DNA of 64,000 bases from Squalus acanthias. Taxonomy: Eukaryota. Shown here piece by piece: positions 69 to 28,084 of this stretch (the first letter of the stretch is position 1; each line of letters begins with the position of its first letter). Location: contig JASTWF010000034.1 of the NCBI GenBank assembly GCA_030390025.1, positions 806,001-870,000 of the forward strand. The letters run 5' to 3'. The notes beneath the pieces are model-generated. The model searched no databases, was not told the origin of the DNA, and saw nothing but the letters and a program-made list of their open reading frames with translations. Made by a program: the position numbers and the translations under genes.

Positions 69-150
69 TGGCAGCGGTGGGATTCGAACCCACGCCCCCG
101 CAGAGACTGGAGCCTAAATCCAGCGCCTTAGACCGCTCGGCCACGCTACC
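69..150 (-). tRNA. tRNA-Leu-TAG: tRNA-Leu(UAG), copy 1
   Basis: Reverse complement GGTAGCGTGGCCGAGCGGTCTAAGGCGCTGGATTTAGGCTCCAGTCTCTGCGGGGGCGTGGGTTCGAATCCCACCGCTGCCA, 82 nt, anticodon TAG, long variable arm with UGCG (UNCG-type) loop, intact A and B boxes. Confidence 0.97.
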
Positions 151-480
151 ACATGACGCAGCTTGGCTTCTGAAACTAGAAACTGGTGATTGAAATGTGG
201 CTTGGTCTTGTAAAAACATTGGGGAAACAAAAGGAAATTGAATTCGAAAACGACAATCTCTTTTCTGATGCAACCCACTAGATCAGAAGAAGCTGCGTGT
301 TCACAGGGCAACACGAATAAATAGATGTTTGTTGGGCCACCGCCATTGTATATTTAATTCATAATTTATACCTGTTGTGTATTGCAAGCAGGACGTTGGT
401 GCAAGTAAACTGTGATAAAATTATGATGTGATTGTGGGTAGCAACACTGTTTTTATTGTTGTTGAAAATAACAATGCAAA

Positions 481-552
481 TAGCAGAGGTTGGTTTCGAT
501 CCATCGACCTCTGGGTTATGGGCCCAGCACACTTCCGCTGCGCCACTCAGCA
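481..552 (-). pseudogene. tRNA-iMet-CAT: tRNA-iMet(CAU) variant with 11-bp 5' deletion, C23U and U64A
   Basis: Matches vertebrate initiator tRNA, but 5' end reads TGCTGAG instead of AGCAGAG; D-stem GTGT; T-stem CCAAC. Confidence 0.85.
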
Positions 553-1029
553 ATTCGCTCGACGCAGGTTTTTAGGTTTCGATGTCCCACAGGGCTGTGT
601 GTTAGCGAAATAAATTTCAGCATCCAGGATGTTTTGAAAGCGATAGCATGGCCCTCAAATAGCCCAGAGACCCGGACACCGCAACACCCGTGTTGGGAGG
701 CTCAAATGGCTGCACAATGTCACAAGGACGCTCAGTATTACACCACCCACAATGGGACAGACACAGAATGAGACACAGAAAACCAGCAAGGGTATGTCAG
801 GCCACACAAAGGGAAGGACAGAGAAAGACACTGAGGAAACTAGAGAGAGCGACACAAACAGACTGAATAAAATGAGGGACAGACAGAGACTGAGGGAAAG
901 ACCGAGACGGCGAGAGAAACAGAGAGGGAGATCGACAAATAGGGAAACGGAGAGTGAGATGAAGACAGAGACCTGCATGAAGGTGCTTTCTGCTGTGTAA
1001 AGGTATTCCCTGTTGTGTAAAGGCCAACA

Positions 1030-1043
1030 GCACCATCTGGTGG
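1030..1043 (-). promoter_or_regulatory. CTCF-like motif, one per array unit (next copy 2856-2869)
   Basis: Minus strand CCACCAGATGGTGC versus consensus CCASYAGRKGGCRS (one mismatch). Confidence 0.5.
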
Positions 1044-1894
1044 TGGAGAAGCGGCGCTGCTGGAATGCGTTGAGAGTTGGGGAAGGCCCAGGCTGCAACA
1101 AGTTTGCAGCATTTGCAACTTATGTTGATGCGAACAAAGTGATTTTTAAGTTGTGTTGCAGCTTTTTGTGTTTATTGCAAGAAGGAAGTTGCTGGAAGTA
1201 AAGCCTAAAGTGTGATAAAAATACCTGCCGCATTGAGCCTGAAATTTACCACAATTATAAGTGGAGGGAACAATAGGGAATATTTGCCGTCCTAATCACA
1301 AGTTCTTCAGAATAATGGCATGAACAACACATCTGACTCTCATCCTGAACACAGAGTCCAGCTCACCAAATCTTTATACAGAATGGATCTTCTCTTCCCG
1401 TTGTCTTAATGTAACTTTCAACGTCTGGATAGGTTAGATTGCAAAAACATATTCGTGTTATATAAATCGGATTGTAGCAGAGGAGCAGATGGGAGGTGCT
1501 GTTCAAACGGTAAGTTTGTAAGGGCGAACGGGGAAACGACGGCGAGATGGTGTTTGCGAGAGTGACAGCAATGGTGAGTGCGTTTGACAGATTGCAAGAA
1601 ATGGAAGAAACAAATATGTGAAAGTGGTGTACATCTGAATACGTGAGACGCAGCAGGTGTGGAGACGAGTGAGTGAACGGTCTGAATCCAGTTGGTTGGG
1701 TGACAGTGTTTGCCGTGTTCGGTGCTGGGTTCAGGCCAATTATGGAACCGTGGAAATTCTGCAAATCGTATCTGCCTGTCAATAACAACTGAAGGACAAA
1801 GGTGAAGAAGTGACATAATACTGAACAAAACATGCCCACCTGCACGATTTTCTGCTGCTGACGAAGCGACGAAATTTATGAATGCCGCAATATC

Positions 1895-1976
1895 TGGCAG
1901 CGGTGGGATTCGAACCCACGCCCCCGCAGAGACTGGAGCCTAAATCCAGCGCCTTAGACCGCTCGGCCACGCTACC
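1895..1976 (-). tRNA. tRNA-Leu-TAG: tRNA-Leu(UAG), copy 2
   Basis: Same sequence as copy 1. Confidence 0.97.
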
Positions 1977-2306
1977 ACATGACGCAGCTTGGCTTCTGAA
2001 ACTAGAAACTGGTGATTGAAATGTGGCTTGGTCTTGTAAAAACATAGGGGAAACAAAAGGAAATTGAATTCGAAAACGCCAATCTCTTTTCTGATGCAAC
2101 CCACTAGATCAGAAGAAGCTGCGTGTTCACAGGGCAACACGAATAAATAGATGTTTGTTGGGCCACCGCCATTGTATATTTAATTCATAATTTATACCTG
2201 TTGTGTATTGCAAGCAGGACGTTGGTGCAAGTAAAGTGTGATAAAATTATGATGTGATTGTGGGTAGCAACACTGTTTTTATTGTTGTTGAAAATAACAA
2301 TGCAAA

Positions 2307-2378
2307 TAGCAGAGGATGGTTTCGATCCATCGACCTCTGGGTTATGGGCCCAGCACACTTCCGCTGCGCCACTCAGCA
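2307..2378 (-). pseudogene. tRNA-iMet-CAT: tRNA-iMet variant with 11-bp 5' deletion and C23U
   Basis: cgccactc|agcaatt junction; T-stem normal. Confidence 0.85.
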
Positions 2379-3720
2379 ATTCGCTCGACGCAGGTTTTTA
2401 GGTTTCGATGTCCCACAGGGCTGTGTGTTAGCGAAATAAATTTCAGCATCCAGGATGTTTTGAAAGCGATAGCATGGCCCTCAAATAGCCCAGAGACCCG
2501 GACACCGCAACACCCGTGTTGGGAGGCTCAAATGGCTGCACAATGTCACAAGGACGCTCAGTATTACACCACCCACAATGGGACAGACACAGAATGAGAC
2601 ACAGAAAACCAGCAAGGGTATGTCAGGCCACACAAAGGGAAGGACAGAGAAAGACACTGAGGAAACTAGAGAGAGCGACACAAACAGACTGAATAAAATG
2701 AGGGACAGACAGAGACTGAGGGAAAGACCGAGACGGCGAGAGAAACAGAGAGGGAGATAGACAAATAGGGAAACGGAGAGTGAGATGAAGACAGAGACCT
2801 GCATGAAGGTGCTTTCTGCTGTGTAAAGGTATTCCCTGTTGTGTAAAGGCCAACAGCACCATCTGGTGGTGGAGAAGCGGCGCTGCTGGAATGCGTTGAG
2901 AGTTGGGGAAGGCCCAGGCTGCAACAAGTTTGCAGCATTTGCAACGTATGTTGATGCGAACAAAGTGATTTTTAAGTTGTGTTGCAGCTTTTTGTGTTTA
3001 TTGCAAGAAGGAAGTTGCTGGAAGTAAAGCCTAAAGTGTGATAAAAATACCTGCCGCATTGAGCCTGAAATTTACCACAATTATAAGTGGAGGGAACAAT
3101 AGGGAATATTTGCCGTCCTAATCACAAGTTCTTCAGAATAATGGCATGAACAACACATCTGACTCTCATCCTGAACACAGAGTCCAGCTCACCAAATCTT
3201 TATACAGAATGGATCTTCTCTTCCCGTTGTCTTAATGTAACTTTCAACGTCTGGATAGGTTAGATTGCAAAAACATATTCGTGTTATATAAATCGGATTG
3301 TAGCAGAGGAGCAGATGGGAGGTGCTGTTCAAACGGTAAGTTTGTAAGGGCGAACGGGGAAACGACGGCGAGATGGTGTTTGCGAGAGTGACAGCAATGG
3401 TGAGTGCGTTTGACAGATTGCAAGAAATGGAAGAAACAAATATGTGAAAGTGGTGTACATCTGAATACGTGAGACGCAGCAGGTGTGGAGACGAGTGAGT
3501 GAACGGTCTGAATCCAGTTGGTTGGGTGACAGTGTTTGCCGTGTTCGGTGCTGGGTTCAGGCCAATTATGGAACCGTGGAAATTCTGCAAATCGTATCTG
3601 CCTGTCAATAACAACTGAAGGACAAAGGTGAAGAAGTGACATAATACTGAACAAAACATGCCCACCTGCACGATTTTCTGCTGCTGACGAAGCGACGAAA
3701 TTTATGAATGCCGCAATATC

Positions 3721-3802
3721 TGGCAGCGGTGGGATTCGAACCCACGCCCCCGCAGAGACTGGAGCCTAAATCCAGCGCCTTAGACCGCTCGGCCACGCTA
3801 CC
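3721..3802 (-). tRNA. tRNA-Leu-TAG: tRNA-Leu(UAG), copy 3
   Basis: Same sequence as copy 1. Confidence 0.97.
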
Positions 3803-4132
3803 ACATGAATCAGCTTGGCTTCTGAAACTCGAAACTGGTGATTGAAATGTGGCTTGGTCTTGTAAAAACATTGGGGAAACAAAAGGAAATTGAATTCGTG
3901 AACGCCAATCTCTTTTCTGATGCAACCCACTAGATCAGAAGAAGCTGCGTGTTCACAGGGCAACACGAATAAATAGATGTTTGTTGGGCCACCGCCATTG
4001 TATATTTAATTCATAATTTATACCTGTTGTGTATTGCAAGCAGGACGTTGGTGCAAGTAAAGTGTGATAAAATTATGATGTGATTGTGGGTAGCAACACT
4101 GTTTTTATTGTTGTTGAAAATAACAATGCAAA

Positions 4133-4204
4133 TAGCAGAGGTTGGTTTCGATCCATCGACCTCTGGGTTATGGGCCCAGCACACTTCCGCTGCGCCACTC
4201 AGCA
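4133..4204 (-). pseudogene. tRNA-iMet-CAT: tRNA-iMet variant with 11-bp deletion, C23U and U64A
   Basis: Deletion junction plus gttgg T-stem change. Confidence 0.85.
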
Positions 4205-5546
4205 ATTCGCTCGACGCAGGTTTTTAGGTTTCGATGTCCCACAGGGCTGTGTGTTAGCGAAATAAATTTCAGCATCCAGGATGTTTTGAAAGCGATAGCA
4301 TGGCCCTCAAATAGCCCAGAGACCCGGACACCGCAACACCCGTGTTGGGAGGCCCAAATGGCTGCACAATGTCACAAGGACGCTCAGTATTACACCACCC
4401 ACAATGGGACAGACACAGAATGAGACACAGAAAACCAGCAAGGGTATGTCAGGCCACACAAAGGGAAGGACAGAGAAAGACACTGAGGAAACTAGAGAGA
4501 GCGACACAAACAGACTGAATAAAATGAGGGACAGACAGAGACTGAGGGAAAGACCGAGACGGCGAGAGAAACAGAGAGGGAGATCGACAAATAGGGAAAC
4601 GGAGAGTGAGATGAAGACAGAGACCTGCATGAAGGTGCTTTCTGCTGTGTAAAGGTATTCCCTGTTGTGTAAAGGCCAACAGCACCATCTGGTGGTGGAG
4701 AAGCGGCGCTGCTGGAATGCGTTGAGAGTTGGGGAAGGCCCAGGCTGCAACAAGTTTGCAGCATTTGCAACGTATGTTGATGCGAACAAAGTGATTTTTA
4801 AGTTGTGTTGCAGCTTTTTGTGTTTATTGCAAGAAGGAAGTTGCTGGAAGTAAAGCCTAAAGTGTGATAAAAATACCTGCCGCATTGAGCCTGAAATTTA
4901 CCACAATTATAAGTGGAGGGAACAATAGGGAATATTTGCCGTCCTAATCACAAGTTCTTCAGAATAATGGCATGAACAACACATCTGACTCTCATCCTGA
5001 ACACAGAGTCCAGCTCACCAAATCTTTATACAGAATGGATCTTCTCTTCCCGTTGTCTTAATGTAACTTTCAACGTCTGGATAGGTTAGATTGCAAAAAC
5101 ATATTCGTGTTATATAAATCGGATTGTAGCAGAGGAGCAGATGGGAGGTGCTGTTCAAACGGTAAGTTTGTAAGGGCGAACGGGGAAACGACGGCGAGAT
5201 GGTGTTTGCGAGAGTGACAGCAATGGTGAGTGCGTTTGACAGATTGCAAGAAATGGAAGAAACAAATATGTGAAAGTGGTGTACATCTGAATACGTGAGA
5301 CGCAGCAGGTGTGGAGACGAGTGAGTGAACGGTCGGAATCCAGTTGGTTGGGTGACAGTGTTTGCCGTGTTCGGTGCTGGGTTCAGGCCAATTATGGAAC
5401 CGTGGAAATTCTGCAAATCGTGTCTGCCTGTCAATAACAACTGAAGGACAAAGGTGAAGAAGTGACATAATACTGAACAAAACAGGCACACCTGCACGAT
5501 TTTCTGCTGCTGACGAAGCGACGAAATTTATGAATGCCGCAATATC

Positions 5547-5628
5547 TGGCAGCGGTGGGATTCGAACCCACGCCCCCGCAGAGACTGGAGCCTAAATCCA
5601 GCGCCTTAGACCGCTCGGCCACGCTACC
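5547..5628 (-). tRNA. tRNA-Leu-TAG: tRNA-Leu(UAG), copy 4
   Basis: Same sequence as copy 1. Confidence 0.97.
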
Positions 5629-5958
5629 ACATGAATCAGCTTGGCTTCTGAAACTAGAAACTGGTGATTGAAATGTGGCTTGGTCTTGTAAAAACATTGG
5701 GGAAACAAAAGGAAATTGAATTCGAAAACGACAATCTCTTTTCTGATGCAACCCACTAGATCAGAAGAAGCTGCGTGTTCACAGGGCAACACGAATAAAT
5801 AGATGTTTGTTGGGCCACCGCCATTGTATATTTAATTCATAATTTATACCTGTTGTGTATTGCAAGCAGGACGTTGGTGCAAGTAAACTGTGATAAAATT
5901 ATGATGTGATTGTGGGTAGCAACACTGTTTTTATTGTTGTTGAAAATAACAATGCAAA

Positions 5959-6030
5959 TAGCAGAGGTTGGTTTCGATCCATCGACCTCTGGGTTATGGG
6001 CCCAGCACACTTCCGCTGCGCCACTCAGCA
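5959..6030 (-). pseudogene. tRNA-iMet-CAT: tRNA-iMet variant with 11-bp deletion, C23U and U64A
   Basis: Deletion junction plus gttgg T-stem change. Confidence 0.85.
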
Positions 6031-7372
6031 ATTCGCTCGACGCAGGTTTTTAGGTTTCGATGTCCCACAGGGCTGTGTGTTAGCGAAATAAATTTCAGCA
6101 TCCAGGATGTTTTGAAAGCGATAGCATGGCCCTCAAATAGCCCAGAGACCCGGACACCGCAACACCCGTGTTGGGAGGCCCAAATGGCTGCACAATTTCA
6201 CAAGGACGCTCAGTATTACACCACCCACAATGGGACAGACACAGAATGAGACACAGAAAACCAGCAAGGGTATGTCAGGCCACACAAAGGGAAGGACAGA
6301 GAAAGACACTGAGGAAACTAGAGAGAGCGACACAAACAGACTGAATAAAATGAGGGACAGACAGAGACTGAGGGAAAGACCGAGACGGCGAGAGAAACAG
6401 AGAGGGAGATCGACAAATAGGGAAACGGAGAGTGAGATGAAGACAGAGACCTGCATGAAGGTGCTTTCTGCTGTGTAAAGGTATTCCCTGTTGTGTAAAG
6501 GCCAACAGCACCATCTGGTGGTGGAGAAGCGGCGCTGCTGGAATGCGTTGAGAGTTGGGGAAGGCCCAGGCTGCAACAAGTTTGCAGCATTTGCAACTTA
6601 TGTTGATGCGAACAAAGTGATTTTTAAGTTGTGTTGCAGCTTTTTGTGTTTATTGCAAGAAGGAAGTTGCTGGAAGTAAAGCCTAAAGTGTGATAAAAAT
6701 ACCTGCCGCATTGAGCCTGAAATTTACCACAATTATAAGTGGAGGGAACAATAGGGAATATTTGCCGTCCTAATCACAAGTTCTTCAGAATAATGGCATG
6801 AACAACACATCTGACTCTCATCCTGAACACAGAGTCCAGCTCACCAAATCTTTATACAGAATGGATCTTCTCTTCCCGTTGTCTTAATGTAACTTTCAAC
6901 GTCTGGATAGGTTAGATTGCAAAAACATATTCGTGTTATATAAATCGGATTGTAGCAGAGGAGCAGATGGGAGGTGCTGTTCAAACGGTAAGTTTGTAAG
7001 GGCGAACGGGGAAACGACGGCGAGATGGTGTTTGCGAGAGTGACAGCAATGGTGAGTGCGTTTGACAGATTGCAAGAAATGGAAGAAACAAATATGTGAA
7101 AGTGGTGTACATCTGAATACGTGAGACGCAGCAGGTGTGGAGACGAGTGAGTGAACGGTCGGAATCCAGTTGGTTGGGTGACAGTGTTTGCCGTGTTCGG
7201 TGCTGGGTTCAGGCCAATTATGGAACCGTGGAAATTCTGCAAATCGTGTCTGCCTGTCAATAACAACTGAAGGACAAAGGTGAAGAAGTGACATAATACT
7301 GAACAAAACAGGCCCACCTGCACGATTTTCTGCTGCTGACGAAGCGACGAAATTTATGAATGCCGCAAAATC

Positions 7373-7454
7373 TGGCAGCGGTGGGATTCGAACCCACGCC
7401 CCCGCAGAGACTGGAGCCTAAATCCAGCGCCTTAGACCGCTCGGCCACGCTACC
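7373..7454 (-). tRNA. tRNA-Leu-TAG: tRNA-Leu(UAG), copy 5
   Basis: Same sequence as copy 1; TTTT begins 3 nt downstream. Confidence 0.97.
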
Positions 7455-7784
7455 ACATGAAGCAGCTTGGCTTCTGAAACTAGAAACTGGTGATTGAAAT
7501 GTGGCTTGGTCTTGTAAAAACATAGGGGAAACAAAAGGAAATTGAATTCGAAAACGACAATCTCTTTTCTGATGCAACCCACTAGATCAGAAGAAGCTGC
7601 GTGTTCACAGGGCAACACGAATAAATAGATGTTTGTTGGGCCACCGCCATTGTATATTTAATTCATAATTTATACCTGTTGTGTATTGCAAGCAGGACGT
7701 TGGTGCAAGTAAAGTGTGATAAAATTATGATGTGATTGTGGGTAGCAACACTGTTTTTATTGTTGTTGAAAATAACAATGCAAA

Positions 7785-7856
7785 TAGCAGAGGATGGTTT
7801 CGATCCATCGACCTCTGGGTTATGGGCCCAGCACACTTCCGCTGCGCCACTCAGCA
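7785..7856 (-). pseudogene. tRNA-iMet-CAT: tRNA-iMet variant with 11-bp deletion and C23U
   Basis: Deletion junction present. Confidence 0.85.
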
Positions 7857-9195
7857 ATTCGCTCGACGCAGGTTTTTAGGTTTCGATGTCCCACAGGGCT
7901 GTGTGTTAGCGAAATAAATTTCAGCATCCAGGATGTTTTGAAAGCGATAGCATGGCCCTCAAATAGCCCAGAGACCCGGACACCGCAACACCCGTGTTGG
8001 GAGGCTCAAATGGCTGCACAATGTCACAAGGACGCTCAGTATTACACCACCCACAATGGGACAGACACAGAATGAGACACAGAAAACCAGCAAGGGTATG
8101 TCAGGCCACACAAAGGGAAGGACAGAGAAAGACACTGAGGAAACTAGAGAGAGCGACACAAACAGACTGAATAAAATGAGGGACAGACAGAGACTGAGGG
8201 AAAGACCGAGACGGCGAGAGAAACAGAGAGGGAGATAGACAAATAGGGAAACGGAGAGTGAGATGAAGACAGAGACCTGCATGAAGGTGCTTTCTGCTGT
8301 GTAAAGGTATTCCCTGTTGTGTAAAGGCCAACAGCACCATCTGGTGGTGGAGAAGCGGCGCTGCTGGAATGCGTTGAGAGTTGGGGAAGGCCCAGGCTGC
8401 AACAAGTTTGCAGCATTTGCAACTTATGTTGATGCGAACAAAGTGATTTTTAAGTTGTGTTGCAGCTTTTTGTGTTTATTGCAAGAAGGAAGTTGCTGGA
8501 AGTAAAGCCTAAAGTGTGATAAAAATACCTGCCGCATTGAGCCTGAAATTTACCACAATTATAAGTGGAGGGAACAATAGGGAATATTTGCCGTCCTAAT
8601 CACAAGTTCTTCAGAATAATGGCATGAACAACACATCTGACTCTCATCCTGAACACAGAGTCCAGCTCACCAAATCTTTATACAGAATGGATCTTCTCTT
8701 CCCGTTGTCTTAATGTAACTTTCAACGTCTGGATAGGTTAGATTGCAAAAACATATTCGTGTTATATAAATCGGATTGTAGCAGAGGAGCAGATGGGAGG
8801 TGCTGTTCAAACGGTAAGTTTGTAAGGGCGAACGGGGAAACGACGGCGAGATGGTGTTTGCGAGAGTGACAGCAATGGTGAGTGCGTTTGACAGATTGCA
8901 AGAAATGGAAGAAACAAATATGTGAAAGTGGTGTACATCTGAATACGTGAGACGCAGCAGGTGTGGAGACGAGTGAGTGAACGGTCTGAATTCAGTTGGT
9001 TGGGTGACGGTGTTTGCCTGCCGTGTTCGGTTCAGGCCAATTATGGAACCGAGGAAATTCTGCAAATCGTATCTGCCTTTCAATAACAACTGAAGGACAA
9101 AGGTGAAGAAGTGACATAATACTGAACAAAACAGGCCCACCTTCACGATTTTCTGCTGCTGACGAAGCGACGAAATTTATGAATGCCGCAATATC

Positions 9196-9277
9196 TGGCA
9201 GCGGTGGGATTCGAACCCACGCCCCCGCAGAGACTGGAGCCTAAATCCAGCGCCTTAGACCGCTCGGCCACGCTACC
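9196..9277 (-). tRNA. tRNA-Leu-TAG: tRNA-Leu(UAG), copy 6
   Basis: Same sequence as copy 1. Confidence 0.97.
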
Positions 9278-9607
9278 ACATGAATCAGCTTGGCTTCTGA
9301 AACTAGAAACTGTTGATTGAAATGTGGCTTGGTCTTGTAAAAACATTGGGGAAACAAAAGGAAATTGAATTCGAGAACGCCAATCTCTTTTCTGATGCAA
9401 CCCACTAGATCAGAAGAAGCTGCGTGTTCACAGGGCAACACGAATAAATAGATGTTTGTTGGGCCACCGCCATTGTATATTTAATTCATAATTTATACCT
9501 GTTGTGTATTGCAAGCAGGACGTTGGTGCAAGTAAAGTGTGATAAAATTATGATGTGATTGTGGGTAGCAACACTGTTTTTATTGTTGTTGAAAATAACA
9601 ATGCAAA

Positions 9608-9679
9608 TAGCAGAGGATGGTTTCGATCCATCGACCTCTGGGTTATGGGCCCAGCACACTTCCGCTGCGCCACTCAGCA
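9608..9679 (-). pseudogene. tRNA-iMet-CAT: tRNA-iMet variant with 11-bp deletion and C23U
   Basis: Deletion junction present. Confidence 0.85.
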
Positions 9680-11002
9680 ATTCGCTCGACGCAGGTTTTT
9701 AGGTTTCGATGTCCCACAGGGCTGTGTGTTAGCGAAATAAATTTCAGCATCCAGGATGTTTTGAAAGCGATAGCATGGCCCTCAAATAGCCCAGAGACCC
9801 GGACACCGCAACACCCGTGTTGGGAGGCCCAAATGGCTGCACAATTTCACAAGGACGCTCAGTATTACACCACCCACAATGGGACAGACACAGAATGAGA
9901 CACAGAAAACCAGCAAGGGTATGTCAGGCCACACAAAGGGAAGGACAGAGAAAGACACTGAGGAAACTAGAGAGAGCGACACAAACAGACTGAATAAAAT
10001 GAGGGACAGACAGAGACTGAGGGAAAGACCGAGACGGCGAGAGAAACAGAGAGGGAGATCGACAAATAGGGAAACGGAGAGTGAGATGAAGACAGAGACC
10101 TGCATGAAGGTGCTTTCTGCTGTGTAAAGGTATTCCCTGTTGTGTAAAGGCCAACAGCACCATCTGGTGGTGGAGAAGCGGCGCTGCTGGAATGCGTTGA
10201 GAGTTGGGGAAGGCCCAGGCTGCAACAAGTTTGCAGCATTTGCAACTTATGTTGATGCGAACAAAGTGATTTTTAAGTTGTGTTGCAGCTTTTTGTGTTT
10301 ATTGCAAGAAGGAAGTTGCTGGAAGTAAAGCCTAAAGTGTGATAAAAATACCTGCCGCATTGAGCCTGAAATTTACCACAATTATAAGTGGAGGGAACAA
10401 TAGGGAATATTTGCCGTCCTAATCACAAGTTCTTCAGAATAATGGCATGAACAACACATCTGACTCTCATCCTGAACACAGAGTCCAGCTCACCAAATCT
10501 TTATACAGAATGGATCTTCTCTTCCCGTTGTCTTAATGTAACTTTCAACGTCTGGATAGGTTAGATTGCAAAAACATATTCGTGTTATATAAATCGGATT
10601 GTAGCAGAGGAGCAGATGGGAGGTGCTGTTCAAACGGTAAGTTTGTAAGGGCGAACGGGGAAACGACGGCGAGATGGTGTTTGCGAGAGTGACAGCAATG
10701 GTGAGTGCGTTTGACAGATTGCAAGAAATGGAAGAAACAAATATGTGAAAGTGGTGTACATCTGAATACGTGAGACGCAGCAGGTGTGGAGACGAGTGAG
10801 TGAACGGTCTGAATTCAGTTGGTTGGGTGACGGAGTTTGCCTGCCGTGTTCGGTTCCGAGGAAATTCTGCAAATCGTATCTGCCTTTCAATAACAACTGA
10901 AGGACAAAGGTGAAGAAGTGACATAATACTGAACAAAACAGGCCCACCTTCACGATTTTCTGCTGCTGACGAAGCGACGAAATTTATGAATGCCGCAATA
11001 TC

Positions 11003-11084
11003 TGGCAGCGGTGGGATTCGAACCCACGCCCCCGCAGAGACTGGAGCCTAAATCCAGCGCCTTAGACCGCTCGGCCACGCTACC
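11003..11084 (-). tRNA. tRNA-Leu-TAG: tRNA-Leu(UAG), copy 7
   Basis: Same sequence as copy 1. Confidence 0.97.
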
Positions 11085-11414
11085 ACATGAATCAGCTTGG
11101 CTTCTGAAACTAGAAACTGGTGATTGAAATGTGGCTTGGTCTTGTAAAAACATTGGGGAAACAAAAGGAAATTGAATTCGAAAACGACAATCTCTTTTCT
11201 GATGCAACCCACTAGATCAGAAGAAGCTGCGTGTTCACAGGGCAACACGAATAAATAGATGTTTGTTGGGCCACCGCCATTGTATATTTAATTCATAATT
11301 TATACCTGTTGTGTATTGCAAGCAGGACGTTGGTGCAAGTAAACTGTGATAAAATTATGATGTGATTGTGGGTAGCAACACTGTTTTTATTGTTGTTGAA
11401 AATAACAATGCAAA

Positions 11415-11486
11415 TAGCAGAGGATGGTTTCGATCCATCGACCTCTGGGTTATGGGCCCAGCACACTTCCGCTGCGCCACTCAGCA
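11415..11486 (-). pseudogene. tRNA-iMet-CAT: tRNA-iMet variant with 11-bp deletion and C23U
   Basis: Deletion junction present. Confidence 0.85.
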
Positions 11487-12828
11487 ATTCGCTCGACGCA
11501 GGTTTTTAGGTTTCGATGTCCCACAGGGCTGTGTGTTAGCGAAATAAATTTCAGCATCCAGGATGTTTTGAAAGCGATAGCATGGCCCTCAAATAGCCCA
11601 GAGACCCGGACACCGCAACACCCGTGTTGGGAGGCCCAAATGGCTGCACAATTTCACAAGGACGCTCAGTATTACACCACCCACAATGGGACAGACACAG
11701 AATGAGACACAGAAAACCAGCAAGGGTATGTCAGGCCACACAAAGGGAAGGACAGAGAAAGACACTGAGGAAACTAGAGAGAGCGACACAAACAGACTGA
11801 ATAAAATGAGGGACAGACAGAGACTGAGGGAAAGACCGAGACGGCGAGAGAAACAGAGAGGGAGATCGACAAATAGGGAAACGGAGAGTGAGATGAAGAC
11901 AGAGACCTGCATGAAGGTGCTTTCTGCTGTGTAAAGGTATTCCCTGTTGTGTAAAGGCCAACAGCACCATCTGGTGGTGGAGAAGCGGCGCTGCTGGAAT
12001 GCGTTGAGAGTTGGGGAAGGCCCAGGCTGCAACAAGTTTGCAGCATTTGCAACTTAGGTTGATGCGAACAAAGTGATTTTTAAGTTGTGTTGCAGCTTTT
12101 TGTGTTTATTGCAAGAAGGAAGTTGCTGGAAGTAAAGCCTAAAGTGTGATAAAAATACCTGCCGCATTGAGCCTGAAATTTACCACAATTATAAGTGGAG
12201 GGAACAATAGGGAATATTTGCCGTCCTAATCACAAGTTCTTCAGAATAATGGCATGAACAACACATCTGACTCTCATCCTGAACACAGAGTCCAGCTCAC
12301 CAAATCTTTATACAGAATGGATCTTCTCTTCCCGTTGTCTTAATGTAACTTTCAACGTCTGGATAGGTTAGATTGCAAAAACATATTCGTGTTATATAAA
12401 TCGGATTGTAGCAGAGGAGCAGATGTGAGGTGCTGTTCAAACGGTAAGTTTGTAAGGGCGAACGGGGAAACGACGGCGAGATGGTGTTTGCGAGAGTGAC
12501 AGCAATGGTGAGTGCGTTTGACAGATTGCAAGAAATGGAAGAAACAAATATGTGAAAGTGGTGTACATCTGAATACGTGAGACGCAGCAGGTGTGGAGAC
12601 GAGTGAGTGAACGGTCGGAATCCAGTTGGTTGGGTGACAGTGTTTGCCGTGTTCGGTGCTGGGTTCAGGCCAATTATGGAACCGTGGAAATTCTGCAAAT
12701 CGTGTCTGCCTGTCAATAACAACTGAAGGACAAAGGTGAAGAAGTGACATAATACTGAACAAAACAGGCCCACCTGCACGATTTTCTGCTGCTGACGAAG
12801 CGACGAAATTTATGAATGCCGCAATATC

Positions 12829-12910
12829 TGGCAGCGGTGGGATTCGAACCCACGCCCCCGCAGAGACTGGAGCCTAAATCCAGCGCCTTAGACCGCTCGG
12901 CCACGCTACC
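12829..12910 (-). tRNA. tRNA-Leu-TAG: tRNA-Leu(UAG), copy 8
   Basis: Same sequence as copy 1. Confidence 0.97.
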
Positions 12911-13239
12911 ACATGAAGCAGCTTGGCTTCTGAAACTAGAAACTGGTGATTGAAATGTGGCTTGGTCTTGTAAAAACATAGGGGAAACAAAAGGAAATTG
13001 AATTCGAAACGACAATCTCTTTTCTGATGCAACCCACTAGATCAGAAGAAGCTGCGTGTTCACAGGGCAACACGAATAAATAGATGTTTGTTGGGCCACC
13101 GCCATTGTATATTTAATTCATAATTTATACCTGTTGTGTATTGCAAGCAGGACGTTGGTGCAAGTAAACTGTGATAAAATTATGATGTGATTGTGGGTAG
13201 CAACACTGTTTTTATTGTTGTTGAAAATAACAATGCAAA

Positions 13240-13311
13240 TAGCAGAGGATGGTTTCGATCCATCGACCTCTGGGTTATGGGCCCAGCACACTTCCGCTGC
13301 GCCACTCAGCA
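13240..13311 (-). pseudogene. tRNA-iMet-CAT: tRNA-iMet variant with 11-bp deletion and C23U
   Basis: Deletion junction present. Confidence 0.85.
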
Positions 13312-14634
13312 ATTCGCTCGACGCAGGTTTTTAGGTTTCGATGTCCCACAGGGCTGTGTGTTAGCGAAATAAATTTCAGCATCCAGGATGTTTTGAAAGC
13401 GATAGCATGGCCCTCAAATAGCCCAGAGACCCGGACACCGCAACACCCGTGTTGGGAGGCCCAAATGGCTGCACAATGTCACAAGGACGCTCAGTATTAC
13501 ACCACCCACAATGGGACAGACACAGAATGAGACACAGAAAACCAGCAAGGGTATGTCAGGCCACACAAAGGGAAGGACAGAGAAAGACATTGAGGAAACT
13601 AGAGAGAGCGACACAAACAGACTGAATAAAATGAGGGACAGACAGAGACTGAGGGAAAGACCGAGACGGCGAGAGAAACAGAGAGGGAGATAGACAAATA
13701 GGGAAACGGAGAGTGAGATGAAGACAGAGACCTGCATGAAGGTGCTTTCTGCTGTGTAAAGGTATTCCCTGTTGTGTAAAGGCCAACAGCACCATCTGGT
13801 GGTGGAGAAGCGGCGCTGCTGGAATGCGTTGAGAGTTGGGGAAGGCCCAGGCTGCAACAAGTTTGCAGCATTTGCAACTTATGTTGATGCGAACAAAGTG
13901 ATTTTTAAGTTGTGTTGCAGCTTTTTGTGTTTATTGCAAGAAGGAAGTTGCTGGAAGTAAAGCCTAAAGTGTGATAAAAATACCTGCCGCATTGAGCCTG
14001 AAATTTACCACAATTATAAGTGGAGGGAACAATAGGGAATATTTGCCGTCCTAATCACAAGTTCTTCAGAATAATGGCATGAACAACACATCTGACTCTC
14101 ATCCTGAACACAGAGTCCAGCTCACCAAATCTTTATACAGAATGGATCTTCTCTTCCCGTTGTCTTAATGTAACTTTCACTGTCTGGATAGGTTAGATTG
14201 CAAAAACATATTCGTGTTATATAAATCGGATTGTAGCAGAGGAGCAGATGGGAGGTGCTGTTCAAACGGTAAGTTTGTAAGGGCGAACGGGGAAACGACG
14301 GCGAGATGGTGTTTGCGAGAGTGACAGCAATGGTGAGTGCGTTTGACAGATTGCAAGAAATGGAAGAAACAAATATGTGAAAGTGGTGTACATCTGAATA
14401 CGTGAGACGCAGCAGGTGTGGAGACGAGTGAGTGAACGGTCTGAATTCAGTTGGTTGGGTGACGGAGTTTGCCTGCCGTGTTCGGTTCCGAGGAAATTCT
14501 GCAAATCGTATCTGCCTTTCAATAACAACTGAAGGACAAAGGTGAAGAAGTGACATAATACTGAACAAAACAGGCCCACCTTCACGATTTTCTGCTGCTG
14601 ACGAAGCGACGAAATTTATGAATGCCGCAATATC

Positions 14635-14716
14635 TGGCAGCGGTGGGATTCGAACCCACGCCCCCGCAGAGACTGGAGCCTAAATCCAGCGCCTTAGACC
14701 GCTCGGCCACGCTACC
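14635..14716 (-). tRNA. tRNA-Leu-TAG: tRNA-Leu(UAG), copy 9
   Basis: Same sequence as copy 1. Confidence 0.97.
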
Positions 14717-15045
14717 ACATGAATCAGCTTGGCTTCTGAAACTAGAAACTGGTGATTGAAATGTGGCTTGGTCTTGTAAAAACATTGGGGAAACAAAAGG
14801 AAATTGAATTCGAAACGACAATCTCTTTTCTGATGCAACCCACTAGATCAGAAGAAGCTGCGTGTTCACAGGGCAACACGAATAAATAGATGTTTGTTGG
14901 GCCACCGCCATTGTATATTTAATTCATAATTTATACCTGTTGTGTATTGCAAGCAGGACGTTGGTGCAAGTAAAGTGTGATAAAATTATGATGTGATTGT
15001 GGGTAGCAACACTGTTTTTATTGTTGTTGAAAATAACAATGCAAA

Positions 15046-15117
15046 TAGCAGAGGATGGTTTCGATCCATCGACCTCTGGGTTATGGGCCCAGCACACTTC
15101 CGCTGCGCCACTCAGCA
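15046..15117 (-). pseudogene. tRNA-iMet-CAT: tRNA-iMet variant with 11-bp deletion and C23U
   Basis: Deletion junction present. Confidence 0.85.
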
Positions 15118-16871: not shown

Positions 16872-16943
16872 TAGCAGAGGATGGTTTCGATCCATCGACC
16901 TCTGGGTTATGGGCCCAGCACGCTTCCGCTGCGCCACTCTGCT
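16872..16943 (-). tRNA. tRNA-iMet-CAT: Intact initiator tRNA-Met(CAU)
   Basis: Reverse complement AGCAGAGTGGCGCAGCGGAAGCGTGCTGGGCCCATAACCCAGAGGTCGATGGATCGAAACCATCCTCTGCTA: A1:U72, three G:C anticodon-stem pairs, AUCG T-loop; TTTT ~12 nt downstream; TAAAAA at -28 to -33. Confidence 0.97.
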
Positions 16944-18296
16944 GTCGGTTAGCAATTGGCTCGGCGCAGGTTTTTAGGTTTCGATGTCCCACAGGGCTGT
17001 GTGTTAGCGAAATAAATTTCAGCATCCAGGATGTTTTGAAAGCGATAGCATGGCCCTCAAATAGCCCAGAGACCCGGACACCGCAACACCCGTGTTGGGA
17101 GGCTCAAATGGCTGCACAATGTCACAAGGACGCTCAGTATTACACCACCCACAATGGGACAGACACAGAATGAGACACAGAAAACCAGCAAGGGTATGTC
17201 AGGCCACACAAAGGGAAGGACAGAGAAAGACATTGAGGAAACTAGAGAGAGCGACACAAACAGACTGAATAAAATGAGGGACAGACAGAGACTGAGGGAA
17301 AGACCGAGACGGCGAGAGAAACAGAGAGGGAGATAGACAAACAGGGAAACGGAGAGTGAAATGAAGAGAGAGACCTGCATGAAGGTGCTTTCTGCTGTGT
17401 AAAGTTATTCCCTGTTGTGTAAAGGCCAACAGCACCATCTGGTGGTGGAGAAGCGGCGCTGCTGGAATGCGTTGAGAGTTGGGGAAGGCCCAGGCTGCAA
17501 CAAGTTTGCAGCATTTGCAACTTATGTTGGTGCGAACAAAGTGATTTTTAAGTTGTGTTGCAGCTTTTTGTGTTTATTGCAAGAAGGAAGTTGCTGGAAG
17601 TAAAGCCTAAAGTGTGATAAAAATACCTGCCGCATTGAGCCTGAAATTTACCACAATTATAAGTGGAGGGAACAATAGGGAATATTTGCCGTCCTAATCA
17701 CAAGTTCTTCAGAATAATGGCATGAAAAACACATCTGACTCTCATCCTGAACACAGAGTCCAGCTCACCAAATGTTTATACAGAATGGATCTTCTCTTCC
17801 CGTTGTCTTAATGTAACTTTCACTGTCTGGATAGGTTAGATTGAAAAAACATATTCGTGTTATATAAATCGGATTGTAGCAGAGGAGCAGATGGGAGGTG
17901 CTGTTCAAACGGTAAGTTTGTAAGGGCGAACGGGGAAACGACGGCGAGATGGTGTTTGCGAGAGTGACAGCAATGGTGAGCGTGTTTGACAGATTGCAAG
18001 AAATGGAAGAAACAAATATGTGAAAGTGGTGTACATCTGAATACGTGAGACGCAGCAGGTGTGGAGACGAGTGAGTGAACGGTCTGAATTCAGTTGGTTG
18101 GGTGACGGTGTTTGCCGTGTTCGGTGCTGGGTTCAGGCCAATTATGGAACCGTGGAAATTCTGCAAATCGTATCTGCCTGTCAATAACAACTGAAGGACA
18201 AAGGTGAAGAAGTGACATAATACTGAACAAAACAGGCCCACCTGCACGATTTTCTGCTGCTGACGAAGCGACGAAATTTATGAATGCCGCAATATC

Positions 18297-18378
18297 TGGC
18301 AGCGGTGGGATTCGAACCCACGCCCCCGCAGAGACTGGAGCCTAAATCCAGCGCCTTAGACCGCTCGGCCACGCTACC
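18297..18378 (-). tRNA. tRNA-Leu-TAG: tRNA-Leu(UAG), copy 11
   Basis: Same sequence as copy 1. Confidence 0.97.
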
Positions 18379-18708
18379 ACATGAAGCAGCTTGGCTTCTG
18401 AAACTAGAAACTGGTGATTGAAATGTGGCTTGGTCTTGTAAAAACATTGGGGAAACAAAAGGAAATTGAATTCGTGAACGCCAATCTCTTTTCTGATGCA
18501 ACCCACTAGATCAGAAGAAGCTGCGTGTTCACAGGGCAACACTAATAAATAGATGTTTGTTGGGCCACCGCCATTGTATATTTAATTCATAATTTATACC
18601 TGTTGTGTATTGCAAGCAGGACGTTGGTGCAAGTAAAGTGTGATAAAATTATGATGTGATTGTGGGTAGCAACACTGTTTTTATTGTTGTTGAAAATAAC
18701 AATGCAAA

Positions 18709-18781
18709 TAGCAGAGGATGGTTTCGATCCATCGACCTCTGGGTTATGGGCCCAGCACAGCTTCCGCTGCGCCACTCTGTC
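18709..18781 (-). pseudogene. tRNA-iMet-CAT: tRNA-iMet, chimeric or aberrant copy (possible consensus artefact)
   Basis: Carries both alleles in tandem (cagcacAGcttcc) and a partial version of the 11-bp segment (ctc-tgtcg-agca). Confidence 0.6.
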
Positions 18782-20116
18782 GAGCAATTCGCTCGACGCA
18801 GGTTTTTAGGTTTCGATGTCCCACAGGGCTGTGTGTTAGCGAAATAAATTTCAGCATCAGGATGTTTTGAAAGCGATAGCATGGCCCTCAAATAGCCCAG
18901 AGACCCGGACACCGCAACACCCGTGTTGGGAGGCCTCAAATGGCTGCACAATGTCACAAGGACGCTCAGTATTACACCACCCACAATGGGACAGACACAG
19001 AATGAGACACAGAAAACCAGCAAGGGTATGTCAGGCCACACAAAGGGAAGGACAGAGAAAGACACTGAGGAAACTAGAGAGAGCGACACAAACAGACTGA
19101 ATAAAATGAGGGACAGACAGAGACTGAGGGAAAGACCGAGACGGCGAGAGAAACAGAGAGGGAGATAGACAAATAGGGAAACGGAGAGTGAGATGAAGAC
19201 AGAGACCTGCATGAAGGTGCTTTCTGCTGTGTAAAGGTATTCCCTGTTGTGTAAAGGCCAACAGCACCATCTGGTGGTGGAGAAGCGGCGCTGCTGGAAT
19301 GCGTTGAGAGTTGGGGAAGGCCCAGGCTGCAACAAGTTTGCAGCATTTGCAACTTATGTTGGTGCGAACAAAGTGATTTTTAAGTTGTGTTGCAGCTTTT
19401 TGTGTTTATTGCAAGAAGGAAGTTGCTGGAAGTAAAGCCTAAAGTGTGATAAAAATACCTGCCGCATTGAGCCTGAAATTTACCACAATTATAAGTGGAG
19501 GGAACAATAGGGAATATTTGCCGTCCTAATCACAAGTTCTTCAGAATAATGGCATGAAAAACACATCTGACTCTCATCCTGAACACAGAGTCCAGCTCAC
19601 CAAATGTTTATACAGAATGGATCTTCTCTTCCCGTTGTCTTAATGTAACTTTCACTGTCTGGATAGGTTAGATTGCAAAAACATATTCGTGTTATATAAA
19701 TCGGATTGTAGCAGAGGAGCAGATGGGAGGTGCTGTTCAAACGGTAAGTTTGTAAGGGCGAACGGGGAAACGACGGCGAGATGGTGTTTGCGAGAGTGAC
19801 AGCAATGGTGAGCGCGTTTGACAGATTGCAAGAAATGGAAGAAACAAATATGTGAAAGTGGTGTACATCTGAATACGTGAGACGCAGCAGGTGTGGAGAC
19901 GAGTGAGTGAACGGTCTGAATTCAGTTGGTTGGGTGACGGTGTTTGCCGGGTTCAGGCCAATTATGGAACCGAGGAAATTCTGCAAATCGTTTCTGCCTG
20001 TCAATAACAACTGAAGGACAAAGGTGAAGAAGTGACATAATACTGAACAAAACAGGCCCACCTTCACGATTTTCTGCTGCTGACGAAGCGACGAAATTTA
20101 TGAATGCCGCAATATC

Positions 20117-20527: not shown

Positions 20528-20599
20528 TAGCAGAGGATGGTTTCGATCCATCGACCTCTGGGTTATGGGCCCAGCACGCTTCCGCTGCGCCACTCTGCT
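20528..20599 (-). tRNA. tRNA-iMet-CAT: Intact initiator tRNA-Met(CAU)
   Basis: Full 72-nt canonical sequence. Confidence 0.97.
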
Positions 20600-22361: not shown

Positions 22362-22433
22362 TAGCAGAGGATGGTTTCGATCCATCGACCTCTGGGTTAT
22401 GGGCCCAGCACGCTTCCGCTGCGCCACTCTGCT
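22362..22433 (-). tRNA. tRNA-iMet-CAT: Intact initiator tRNA-Met(CAU)
   Basis: Full 72-nt canonical sequence. Confidence 0.97.
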
Positions 22434-24197: not shown

Positions 24198-24269
24198 TAG
24201 CAGAGGATGGTTTCGATCCATCGACCTCTGGGTTATGGGCCCAGCACGCTTCCGCTGCGCCACTCTGCT
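24198..24269 (-). tRNA. tRNA-iMet-CAT: Intact initiator tRNA-Met(CAU)
   Basis: Full 72-nt canonical sequence. Confidence 0.97.
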
Positions 24270-25622
24270 GTCGGTTAGCAATTCGCTCGACGCAGGTTTT
24301 TAGGTTTCGATGTCCCACAGGGCTGTGTGTTAGCGAAATAAATTTCAGCATCCAGGATGTTTTGAAAGCGATAGCATGGCCCTCAAATAGCCCAGAGACC
24401 CGGACACCGCAACACCCGTGTTGGGAGGCTCAAATGGCTGCACAATGTCACAAGGACGCTCAGTATTACACCACCCACAATGGGACAGACACAGAATGAG
24501 ACACAGAAAACCAGCAAGGGTATGTCAGGCCACACAAAGGGAAGGACAGAGAAAGACACTGAGGAAACTAGAGAGAGCGACACAAACAGACTGAATAAAA
24601 TGAGGGACAGACAGAGACTGAGGGAAAGACCGAGACGGCGAGAGAAACAGAGAGGGAGATAGACAAATAGGGAAACGGAGAGTGAGATGAAGACAGAGAC
24701 CTGCATGAAGGTGCTTTCTGCTGTGTAAAGTTATTCCCTGTTGTGTAAAGGCCAACAGCACCATCTGGTGGTGGAGAAGCGGCGCTGCTGGAATGCGTTG
24801 AGAGTTGGGGAAGGCCCAGGCTGCAACAAGTTTGCAGCATTTGCAACTTATGTTGGTGCGAACAAAGTGATTTTTAAGTTGTGTTGCAGCTTTTTGTGTT
24901 TATTGCAAGAAGGAAGTTGCTGGAAGTAAAGCCTAAAGTGTGATAAAAATACCTGCCGCATTGAGCCTGAAATTTACCACAATTATAAGTGGAGGGAACA
25001 ATAGGGAATATTTGCCGTCCTAATCACAAGTTCTTCAGAATAATGGCATGAAAAACACATCTGACTCTCATCCTGAACACAGAGTCCAGCTCACCAAATC
25101 TTTATACAGAATGGATCTTCTCTTCCCGTTGTCTTAATGTAACTTTCACTGTCTGGATAGGTTAGATTGAAAAAACATATTCGTGTTATATAAATCGGAT
25201 TGTAGCAGAGGAGCAGATGGGAGGTGCTGTTCAAACGGTAAGTTTGTAAGGGCGAACGGGGAAACGACGGCGAGATGGTGTTTGCGAGAGTGACAGCAAT
25301 GGTGAGCGCGTTTGACAGATTGCAAGAAATGGAAGAAACAAATATGTGAAAGTGGTGTACATCTGAATACGTGAGACGCAGCAGGTGTGGAGACGAGTGA
25401 GTGAACGGTCTGAATTCAGTTGGTTGGGTGACGGTGTTTGCCGTGTTCGGTGCTGGGTTCAGGCCAATTATGGAACCGAGGAAATTCTGCAAATCGTATC
25501 TGCCTGTCAATAACAACTGAAGGACAAAGGTGAAGAAGTGACATAATACTGAACAAAACAGGCCCACCTGCACGATTTTCTGCTGCTGACGAAGCGACGA
25601 AATTTATGAATGCCGCAATATC

Positions 25623-26033: not shown

Positions 26034-26105
26034 TAGCAGAGGATGGTTTCGATCCATCGACCTCTGGGTTATGGGCCCAGCACGCTTCCGCTGCGCCACT
26101 CTGCT
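26034..26105 (-). tRNA. tRNA-iMet-CAT: Intact initiator tRNA-Met(CAU)
   Basis: Full 72-nt canonical sequence. Confidence 0.97.
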
Positions 26106-27584: not shown

Positions 27585-28084
27585 NNNNNNNNNNNNNNNN
27601 NNNNNNNNNNNNNNNNNNNNNNNNNNNNNNNNNNNNNNNNNNNNNNNNNNNNNNNNNNNNNNNNNNNNNNNNNNNNNNNNNNNNNNNNNNNNNNNNNNNN
27701 NNNNNNNNNNNNNNNNNNNNNNNNNNNNNNNNNNNNNNNNNNNNNNNNNNNNNNNNNNNNNNNNNNNNNNNNNNNNNNNNNNNNNNNNNNNNNNNNNNNN
27801 NNNNNNNNNNNNNNNNNNNNNNNNNNNNNNNNNNNNNNNNNNNNNNNNNNNNNNNNNNNNNNNNNNNNNNNNNNNNNNNNNNNNNNNNNNNNNNNNNNNN
27901 NNNNNNNNNNNNNNNNNNNNNNNNNNNNNNNNNNNNNNNNNNNNNNNNNNNNNNNNNNNNNNNNNNNNNNNNNNNNNNNNNNNNNNNNNNNNNNNNNNNN
28001 NNNNNNNNNNNNNNNNNNNNNNNNNNNNNNNNNNNNNNNNNNNNNNNNNNNNNNNNNNNNNNNNNNNNNNNNNNNNNNNNNNNN
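27585..28084. other. Assembly gap (500 N)
   Basis: Run of N; the round size suggests a scaffolding placeholder. Confidence 1.

Follow-up and report, generated by a model that had tools for sequence, protein, structure and literature searches.

In a 64,000-nt stretch of the Squalus acanthias genome (assembly GCA_030390025.1, contig JASTWF010000034.1, positions 806,001–870,000; referred to here as the window), the minus strand of positions 1–27584 is filled by a tandem array of about 1.83-kb units, each with a gene for initiator tRNA-Met (tRNA-iMet) and, about 330 nt downstream, a gene for tRNA-Leu(UAG). Nine consecutive iMet genes of this array carry the same 11-bp deletion at the 5' end. Alignment and tree show that these 11 bp were lost in one ancestral unit, whose diverged descendants, nine or more, now lie side by side in an uninterrupted block. 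We consider it likely that the outcome is a defective iMet allele, made by a structure-assisted deletion and spread by unequal exchange as a passenger. A preliminary description of the sequence had favored a pseudogene carried along with tRNA-Leu, and this was the best-supported reading.

The deletion block in the tRNA array

ARAGORN found 16 tRNA-Leu(TAG) and 15 tRNA-Met(CAT) genes, all on the minus strand, and the same 31 genes were recovered by an Rfam search. They form 15 whole units of 1806–1837 bp (68–27456) plus a 16th tRNA-Leu gene. Units 1–9 are deleted, units 10 and 12–15 are intact, and unit 11 is abnormal. The array is open at base 1, and its intact side stops at a gap of 500 N (27585–28084). 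The number of nine consecutive deleted units given previously is correct for the window, but as a total it is a minimum, since the array continues past base 1. The features are as follows (Pol III, RNA polymerase III).

1–27584, minus strand: tandem head-to-tail array of tRNA-iMet and tRNA-Leu(UAG) genes (ARAGORN, Rfam)
481–552, minus strand: variant iMet copy 1 with U1, U4, U23, and A64; deletion junction between 548 and 549 (alignment; Rfam 36.7 bits)
2307–2378, minus strand: variant iMet copy 2 with U1, U4, and U23 (alignment; Rfam 43.3 bits)
4133–4204, minus strand: variant iMet copy 3, carrying A64 (alignment, Rfam)
5959–6030, minus strand: variant iMet copy 4, carrying A64 (alignment, Rfam)
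7785–7856, minus strand: variant iMet copy 5 (alignment, Rfam)
9608–9679, minus strand: variant iMet copy 6 (alignment, Rfam)
11415–11486, minus strand: variant iMet copy 7 (alignment, Rfam)
13240–13311, minus strand: variant iMet copy 8 (alignment, Rfam)
15046–15117, minus strand: variant iMet copy 9, final member of the deletion block (alignment, Rfam)
16872–16943, minus strand: intact iMet of unit 10 (alignment; Rfam 58.0 bits)
18709–18781, minus strand: abnormal iMet of unit 11 (alignment)
20528–20599, 22362–22433, 24198–24269, and 26034–26105, minus strand: other intact iMet genes (alignment, Rfam)
69–150, minus strand: first of the 16 tRNA-Leu(UAG) genes (alignment, Rfam)
465–468, minus strand: T4 run resembling a Pol III terminator, at +13 behind copy 1 (sequence)
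553–558, minus strand: new −1 to −6 flank of copy 1, able to pair with nt 73 plus trailer bases 1–5 (476–481) (sequence, folding)
24262–24297, minus strand: 13-bp quasi-palindrome (−28 to +8) across the 5' end of the intact iMet of unit 14 (DNA folding)

Units 1–9 lack the same 11 bases, flank positions −7 to −1 and nt 1–4 of the tRNA, and the window holds nine exact copies of this junction. The gap has a single placement in the alignment and neither of its ends can slide. Compared to an intact copy, A1U, A4U, and C23U are present in all nine variants, and U64A is present in addition in copies 1, 3, and 4. Both U1.U72 and U4.U69 were flagged as non-pairs by cmscan, U1.U72 in 9/9 copies. The A box, the B box, and the CAU anticodon were unchanged in the variants, and a T4 run was located at +13 in 15/15 Met genes. 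All sequence claims of the preliminary description were borne out.

The variants keep the length of 72 nt, G2:C71, C3:G70, pairs 5–7, and the discriminator A73; five of the seven acceptor stem pairs are present. The three G:C pairs 29–31/39–41 of the anticodon stem, A54, and A60 are unchanged in all nine. The initiator feature A1:U72 is absent. According to PMC3950347, A1:U72 promotes binding to eIF2, wild-type function in yeast requires it, and C3:G70 is an initiator feature as well. A50:U64 and U51:A63 are both kept in six of the nine variants, and an A50.A64 mismatch is found in the other three. In vertebrates, the pairs 50:64 and 51:63 are antideterminants of elongation. The Rfam scores of the variants (36.7 or 43.3 bits, compared to 58.0 for the intact gene) correspond to a loss of 15–21 bits, a scale that is not comparable with the tRNAscan-SE thresholds for pseudogenes or high-confidence genes (PMC8450103).

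Predicted folding and possible products of the variant

A 72-nt cloverleaf, as proposed previously, can be drawn for the variant, but it was not the predicted fold. The cloverleaf energy was −26.1 kcal/mol for the intact tRNA, −18.5 kcal/mol for the variant with U64, and −13.8 kcal/mol for the variant with A64, a loss of 7.6 or 12.3 kcal/mol. For the mature RNA at 37 °C, acceptor pairs 2–3 formed with a probability of 1.0 in the intact tRNA, 0.08 with U64, and 0.01 with A64; at 20 °C, the values were 1.0, 0.39, and 0.01. Only the contrast between intact and variant RNA counts here, because folding of unmodified RNA fails to recover the D arm and the anticodon arm in the intact tRNA as well.

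These values bear on the idea that the variant yields a mature tRNA, receives Met by virtue of its CAU anticodon, and acts as a de-initiatorised, elongation-capable tRNA or as a weak initiator. The retained length, G2:C71, C3:G70, pairs 5–7, anticodon arm, and A73 are in line with this, G12.U23 is a legal wobble pair, and the score lies above the Rfam cut-off. Against it, the acceptor stem is predicted to be open, and A64 results in the A50.A64 mismatch. Elongator tRNA-Met lacks the initiator-type A54 and A60 and has a paired, elongator-type 1:72, whereas the variants keep A54 and A60 and leave 1.72 unpaired. The de-initiatorised tRNA raised in the preliminary description is unlikely because the changes break pairs (U.U, U.U, and A.A, at a cost of 7.6 or 12.3 kcal/mol) instead of adding elongator-type pairs, while the initiator-like A54/A60 and the three G:C pairs stay. 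We regard a working tRNA as highly improbable. Marking of the variant by CCACCA was also considered and is not predicted, since G1G2 is required.

It had also been suggested that a mini inverted repeat rewrites the acceptor stem. We compared 41 deletion registers that remove nt 1–4 plus 0–40 flank bases and counted the Watson–Crick pairs. The observed deletion restores two pairs. This is ordinary, because 14 of the 41 registers restore at least two pairs, and one of them restores three. The 11-bp register is the only one of 41 that gives a 6-bp stack of the leader and the trailer, in which the flank pairs with nt 73 and the trailer. A six-pair stack is possible at 10 of 1644 spacer positions, the real one included.

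The effect of this stack depended on the leader. With a leader of 2–4 nt, the acceptor stem of the variant was open at 37 °C (0.01–0.07). When the leader had 6, 8, or 11 nt, pairs 2–3 of the U64 variant formed at 0.95–0.97 and its pairs 5–7 at 0.87–0.89, and the A64 variant reached only 0.08–0.10 for pairs 5–7. With a short as well as with a long leader, folding makes a normal charged tRNA from the variant unlikely.

The long leaders lead to a different reading, a stable non-coding RNA. With a leader of at least 6 nt, the acceptor helix would be extended to 13 bp and would mask the cleavage sites of RNase P and RNase Z. The unprocessed tRNA-like RNA of about 95 nt, ending in U4, would accumulate from the many copies and could act as a decoy for La or modifying enzymes or as a source of fragments. 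The single register with a 6-bp stack and the closing of the U64 variant with leaders of 6, 8, and 11 nt agree with this, as do pyrimidine–purine starts at the new −8 and −11 and the intact promoter boxes and terminator. RNase P of bacteria is inhibited when pairing of the leader lengthens the acceptor stem (PMC9433436), but this result is bacterial, and its transfer to the nuclear enzyme is an extrapolation. Furthermore, leaders of 2–4 nt leave the stem open, and human leaders have about 2–5 nt (PMC6130373, available sections). A64, present in three of nine copies, undoes the fold (pairs 5–7 at 0.08–0.10), and the tRNA body changes at the spacer rate. The leader–trailer stack needs no selection because the complementarity already exists in the intact flank. 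Overall, we consider a stable RNA of this kind very unlikely. The same low probability applies to a self-locking precursor whose decoy action on La, the m1A58 methyltransferase, or RNase P would damp the initiator supply, or which would seed a new short interspersed element (SINE) family; this depends entirely on the long-leader folding case. If such a decoy existed, it would reveal a new way in which an essential tRNA can give rise to a regulator of translation initiation that is itself an RNA.

A tRNA-derived SINE as the source of the variant copies was rejected: all copies are located in homologous tandem units, and no tRNA or spacer match was found at 28085–64000 of the window. A single metagenome hit to 20 flank bases was a 22-base match in a stretch of 65% GC on a 138-kb contig with no tRNA and was attributed to chance.

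Lineage, origin, and constraint of the deleted allele

Alignment and tree show that the variant derives from an intact iMet gene within this array. The nine deleted units form one side of a branch with support of 100/98 (tree from columns 100–1540; the bootstrap was not fully settled). They share C23U and five fixed spacer differences to the five intact units and carry 21 segregating alleles that are absent from units 10–15. One lineage with 21 private alleles is therefore not one unit duplicated by the assembler. Deleted units differ from each other at 4–20 sites (mean 11.6), compared to means of 8.6 among intact units and 23.4 between the types. The four-gamete test failed for 191 of 595 pairs of informative columns; deleted and intact units still exchange sequence. 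The distal spacer of units 5, 6, and 8, about 100–230 bases before the next tRNA-Leu gene, shows a nested series of indels: unit 5 has a 4-base duplication and a 7-base loss, to which units 6 and 8 add a 16-base loss. Intact-type bases near these indels are a sign of exchange between the two blocks.

The deleted lineage is probably not brand new, because its mean divergence of about 0.65% is large beside the mutation rate of 7e-10 per base per generation that the accessible part of PMC10587355 gives for one shark species. Unit exchange, raised mutation at tRNA loci, and consensus error do not allow a date to be given.

A search of sequencing runs with unit 2 resulted in 24 rows, 20 of which hold part of the unit and 13 at least half of its words (top value 0.64); rows with low shares were disregarded. 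These 13 runs comprise five organism codes and seven studies, and one may be the source sample. The matches support the unit only, not the deletion. No RNA run holding unit 2 was among the 24 listed.

An assembly or polishing artefact could also produce a block of deletions. The array adjoins a gap, units 11, 12, 13, and 15 have two to three private gap columns each, and unit 11 resembles a mixture of the two unit types. On the other hand, nine identical junctions are linked to six fixed substitutions across about 1.06 kb, units 1–10 have no private gap columns, and the 4–20 differences between deleted units, the 21 alleles absent from units 10–15, and the nested indels of units 5, 6, and 8 also argue against this. 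An artefact is thus exceedingly unlikely as the source of the deletion block. Copy order and copy number in the assembly may be wrong.

Unit 11 (18296–20115) harbors a further abnormal iMet copy, which was absent from the preliminary description. Three bases are missing at each of two places near its 5' end, position 23 shows C as well as T, and the unit has deleted-type bases at two of the five fixed spacer sites and further unique indels. These features suggest that unit 11 is probably a consensus of mixed reads, and it was not accepted as an evolutionary intermediate. A perfect 7-bp hairpin can be read in its 5' flank, and a true palindrome correction may have shaped the unit, with a mixed consensus the likelier explanation.

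With regard to the origin of the deletion, the 4-bp TGCT…AGCA repeat noticed previously does exist, but it is a minor feature compared to a 13-bp quasi-palindrome that covers these bases too. In DNA folding, the coding strand of the intact gene gave a 13-bp hairpin with three bulges between −28 and +8, at −8.6 kcal/mol. Of 1545 other spacer windows, 20 reached this energy, as did 25 of 1000 shuffles; after the deletion, the value is −1.4 kcal/mol. The deletion begins exactly at the end of the apical 3-bp stem and takes most of the right arm (equivalent to 24266–24276 in unit 14). In the intact gene, the 6-bp leader–trailer stack is equivalent to a whole-gene hairpin with an 11-nt bulge. Both hairpins were noticed afterwards and we make no choice between them; both outweigh the 4-bp repeat. 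Slippage between direct repeats was rejected, since the junction has no microhomology. A two-step route (slip at a GC pair, then A4U) is possible, and its intermediate was found in 0 of 15 units.

In human, the 5' flanks of tRNA genes are hot spots of transcription-associated mutation, and TBP is bound about 25 nt upstream (PMC6130373, available sections). The first deleted base is the purine of a pyrimidine–purine step at −7, a plausible candidate start site. The deletion shifts an A-tract from −33 to −28 to a position at −22 to −17, and Pol III initiation may be lower or shifted in the deleted units.

Two further observations concern the 5' flank. In unit 10, the intact copy bordering the deletion block, substitutions at −15 and −21 (flank 16944–16965) weaken the quasi-palindrome. 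At 24303–24311 (about −42 to −34 of an intact iMet, other units alike), nine bases are exactly the letters of the iMet T-loop and B box. Rfam found no relic tRNA at this repeat, which is possibly due to chance, and a scan of the spacer for hidden RNA or relic tRNA gave only sub-threshold noise.

Variability was counted in 14 units, leaving out unit 11 and 46 misaligned columns. In the spacer, 46 of 1630 sites vary. In the Met body, 2 of 68 do (1.9 expected), and both changes arose in the deleted lineage. No site varied in tRNA-Leu (0/82, 2.3 expected, P 0.096), and each deleted unit carries a tRNA-Leu gene without substitution. The intact Met genes had 0/72 variable sites in five units (0.84 expected, P 0.43). 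For Leu and intact Met jointly, P was 0.041, a value combined afterwards. With low power and few sites, this pattern fits relaxed constraint on the variant. In the 20 nt upstream, deleted Met had 0 variable sites (0.36 expected), intact Met 1, and Leu 2 and 1, which is uninformative on transcription. C23U as a mark of methylation or silencing was rejected: only 6 of 48 two-allele sites are of the CpG type, and C-to-T is also a signature of transcription in the accessible sections of PMC6130373.

The copies could also matter as DNA, either as a TFIIIC/Pol III barrier or organiser or by tuning the ratio of iMet to Leu output. The A and B boxes are unchanged in 9/9 copies, the deletion length is about one helical turn, and a boundary role, via a CTCF site, has been proposed for the human 1q23.3 tRNA repeat (PMC4041453, available text). 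At 2.8% variable sites, however, intact boxes are uninformative, and each unit already has the Leu promoter. We judge such a role very unlikely.

For the defective passenger allele, we propose that the deletion arose at the Pol III start, where the unwound coding strand could fold into the 13-bp quasi-palindrome or the whole-gene hairpin. Unequal crossing-over would have spread the deleted unit, with the working Leu and the intact iMet copies shielding the allele from selection, and C23U and U64A would represent later decay. Since the internal promoter is intact, the variant copies may still be transcribed. The product, with A1:U72 gone and two U.U mismatches in the acceptor stem, would probably be misprocessed or removed by tRNA quality control and would add little or nothing to the Met-tRNA pool.

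Several points weigh against this explanation. The variant is the majority here (9/15), with boxes, anticodon, and terminator kept. These elements are no sign of selection, because at 2.8% variable sites the 27 box, anticodon, and terminator bases would be unhit with a chance of about 46% (hand arithmetic). Neither Leu nor intact Met alone gave a P value as low as the joint one, and the count disregarded gaps of one base in the tRNA-Leu genes of units 13 and 15, which would blunt the contrast if real. The folding has the limit for unmodified RNA given above, and at 20 °C the predicted acceptor stem of the mature U64 variant closes with a probability of 0.39. The hairpin window was picked after the deletion was seen, and the unique register with the 6-bp stack could reflect selection on the RNA as well as a mutational route. 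Finally, the evidence for tRNA decay comes from yeast.

Neighboring sequence and comparison with known systems

In the tRNA-Leu genes (69–27539), the first T4 run is at +65 in 14 of 15 copies checked, and only the copy at 7373 has a T4 run at +3. Most Leu precursors would carry a long trailer. Beyond the gap, 28085–64000 contained no tRNA, no Rfam match, and no match to the array spacer. A GC-rich 27-bp satellite with about 300 copies occupies 28085–36306. This region has 106 exact copies of AAGATGGCGG (within 28109–36278), which we take to match the YY1 binding motif. Adjacency of satellite and array is unproven because the 500-N gap separates the two. Dense minisatellites with periods of 32/64, 67, 85, and 30 bp and a strong strand skew follow at 37491–57921; they have no Rfam match, and the 67-bp satellite is similar to repeats of sharks.

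If the defective passenger reading is true, the consequences are small: the block would be a clear record of how a Pol III gene was broken at a hairpin and then multiplied through a tandem array. It would also caution against taking tRNA counts in shark-type genomes at face value, since initiator copies that are defective but amplified can be among them. The private marks of the variant (U23, A64, and the new 5' end) make its transcripts traceable in one tRNA-seq library.

We found no description of the variant in the literature covered, which mostly left out older and subscription papers. There are precedents for damaged tRNA genes within reiterated clusters. A reiterated cluster in rat reportedly has damaged tRNA copies in a tandem unit beside intact tRNA genes. 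In contrast to that cluster, it is the initiator gene that is damaged here, with a lesion at its 5' end and a length of 72 nt regained from the flank. Xenopus laevis is said to have a 3.18-kb tandem repeat with eight tRNA genes, reportedly described by Muller, Clarkson and Galas in 1987, among them genes for initiator Met, Leu, and a poorly transcribed second Met tRNA. Like this repeat, the present array is head-to-tail. It differs in having two genes per 1.83-kb unit, and the variant occupies a block of units, not a fixed slot in each unit.

In sharks and rays, tRNA loci are reported to be abundant and clustered (bioRxiv 10.1101/2025.06.08.657570, accessible part). The human 1q23.3 variable number tandem repeat also consists of tandem multi-gene tRNA units. 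According to the available text of PMC4041453, its multi-kb units are about 98% identical, with several tRNA genes each and an unstable copy number of 9–43; unlike the array described here, it has no initiator gene, is GC-rich and CTCF-bound, and the word pseudogene does not occur in the accessible main text. The 5S arrays of stingrays, as far as the accessible sources describe them, are similar in that variants of a Pol III gene are clustered by unequal crossing-over and homogenised in blocks, also in a cartilaginous fish. In those arrays, the 5S variant classes are under purifying selection, whereas here a tRNA allele with a structural lesion is involved. A low-expressed isodecoder of human tRNA-iMet(CAT) is reported in bioRxiv 10.64898/2026.08.28.747798, and tandem amplification is not described in the available part of that source. 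New in the S. acanthias array are a deletion that removes the right arm of a 13-bp quasi-palindrome and its position in the sole register that gives 6-bp pairing between leader and trailer.

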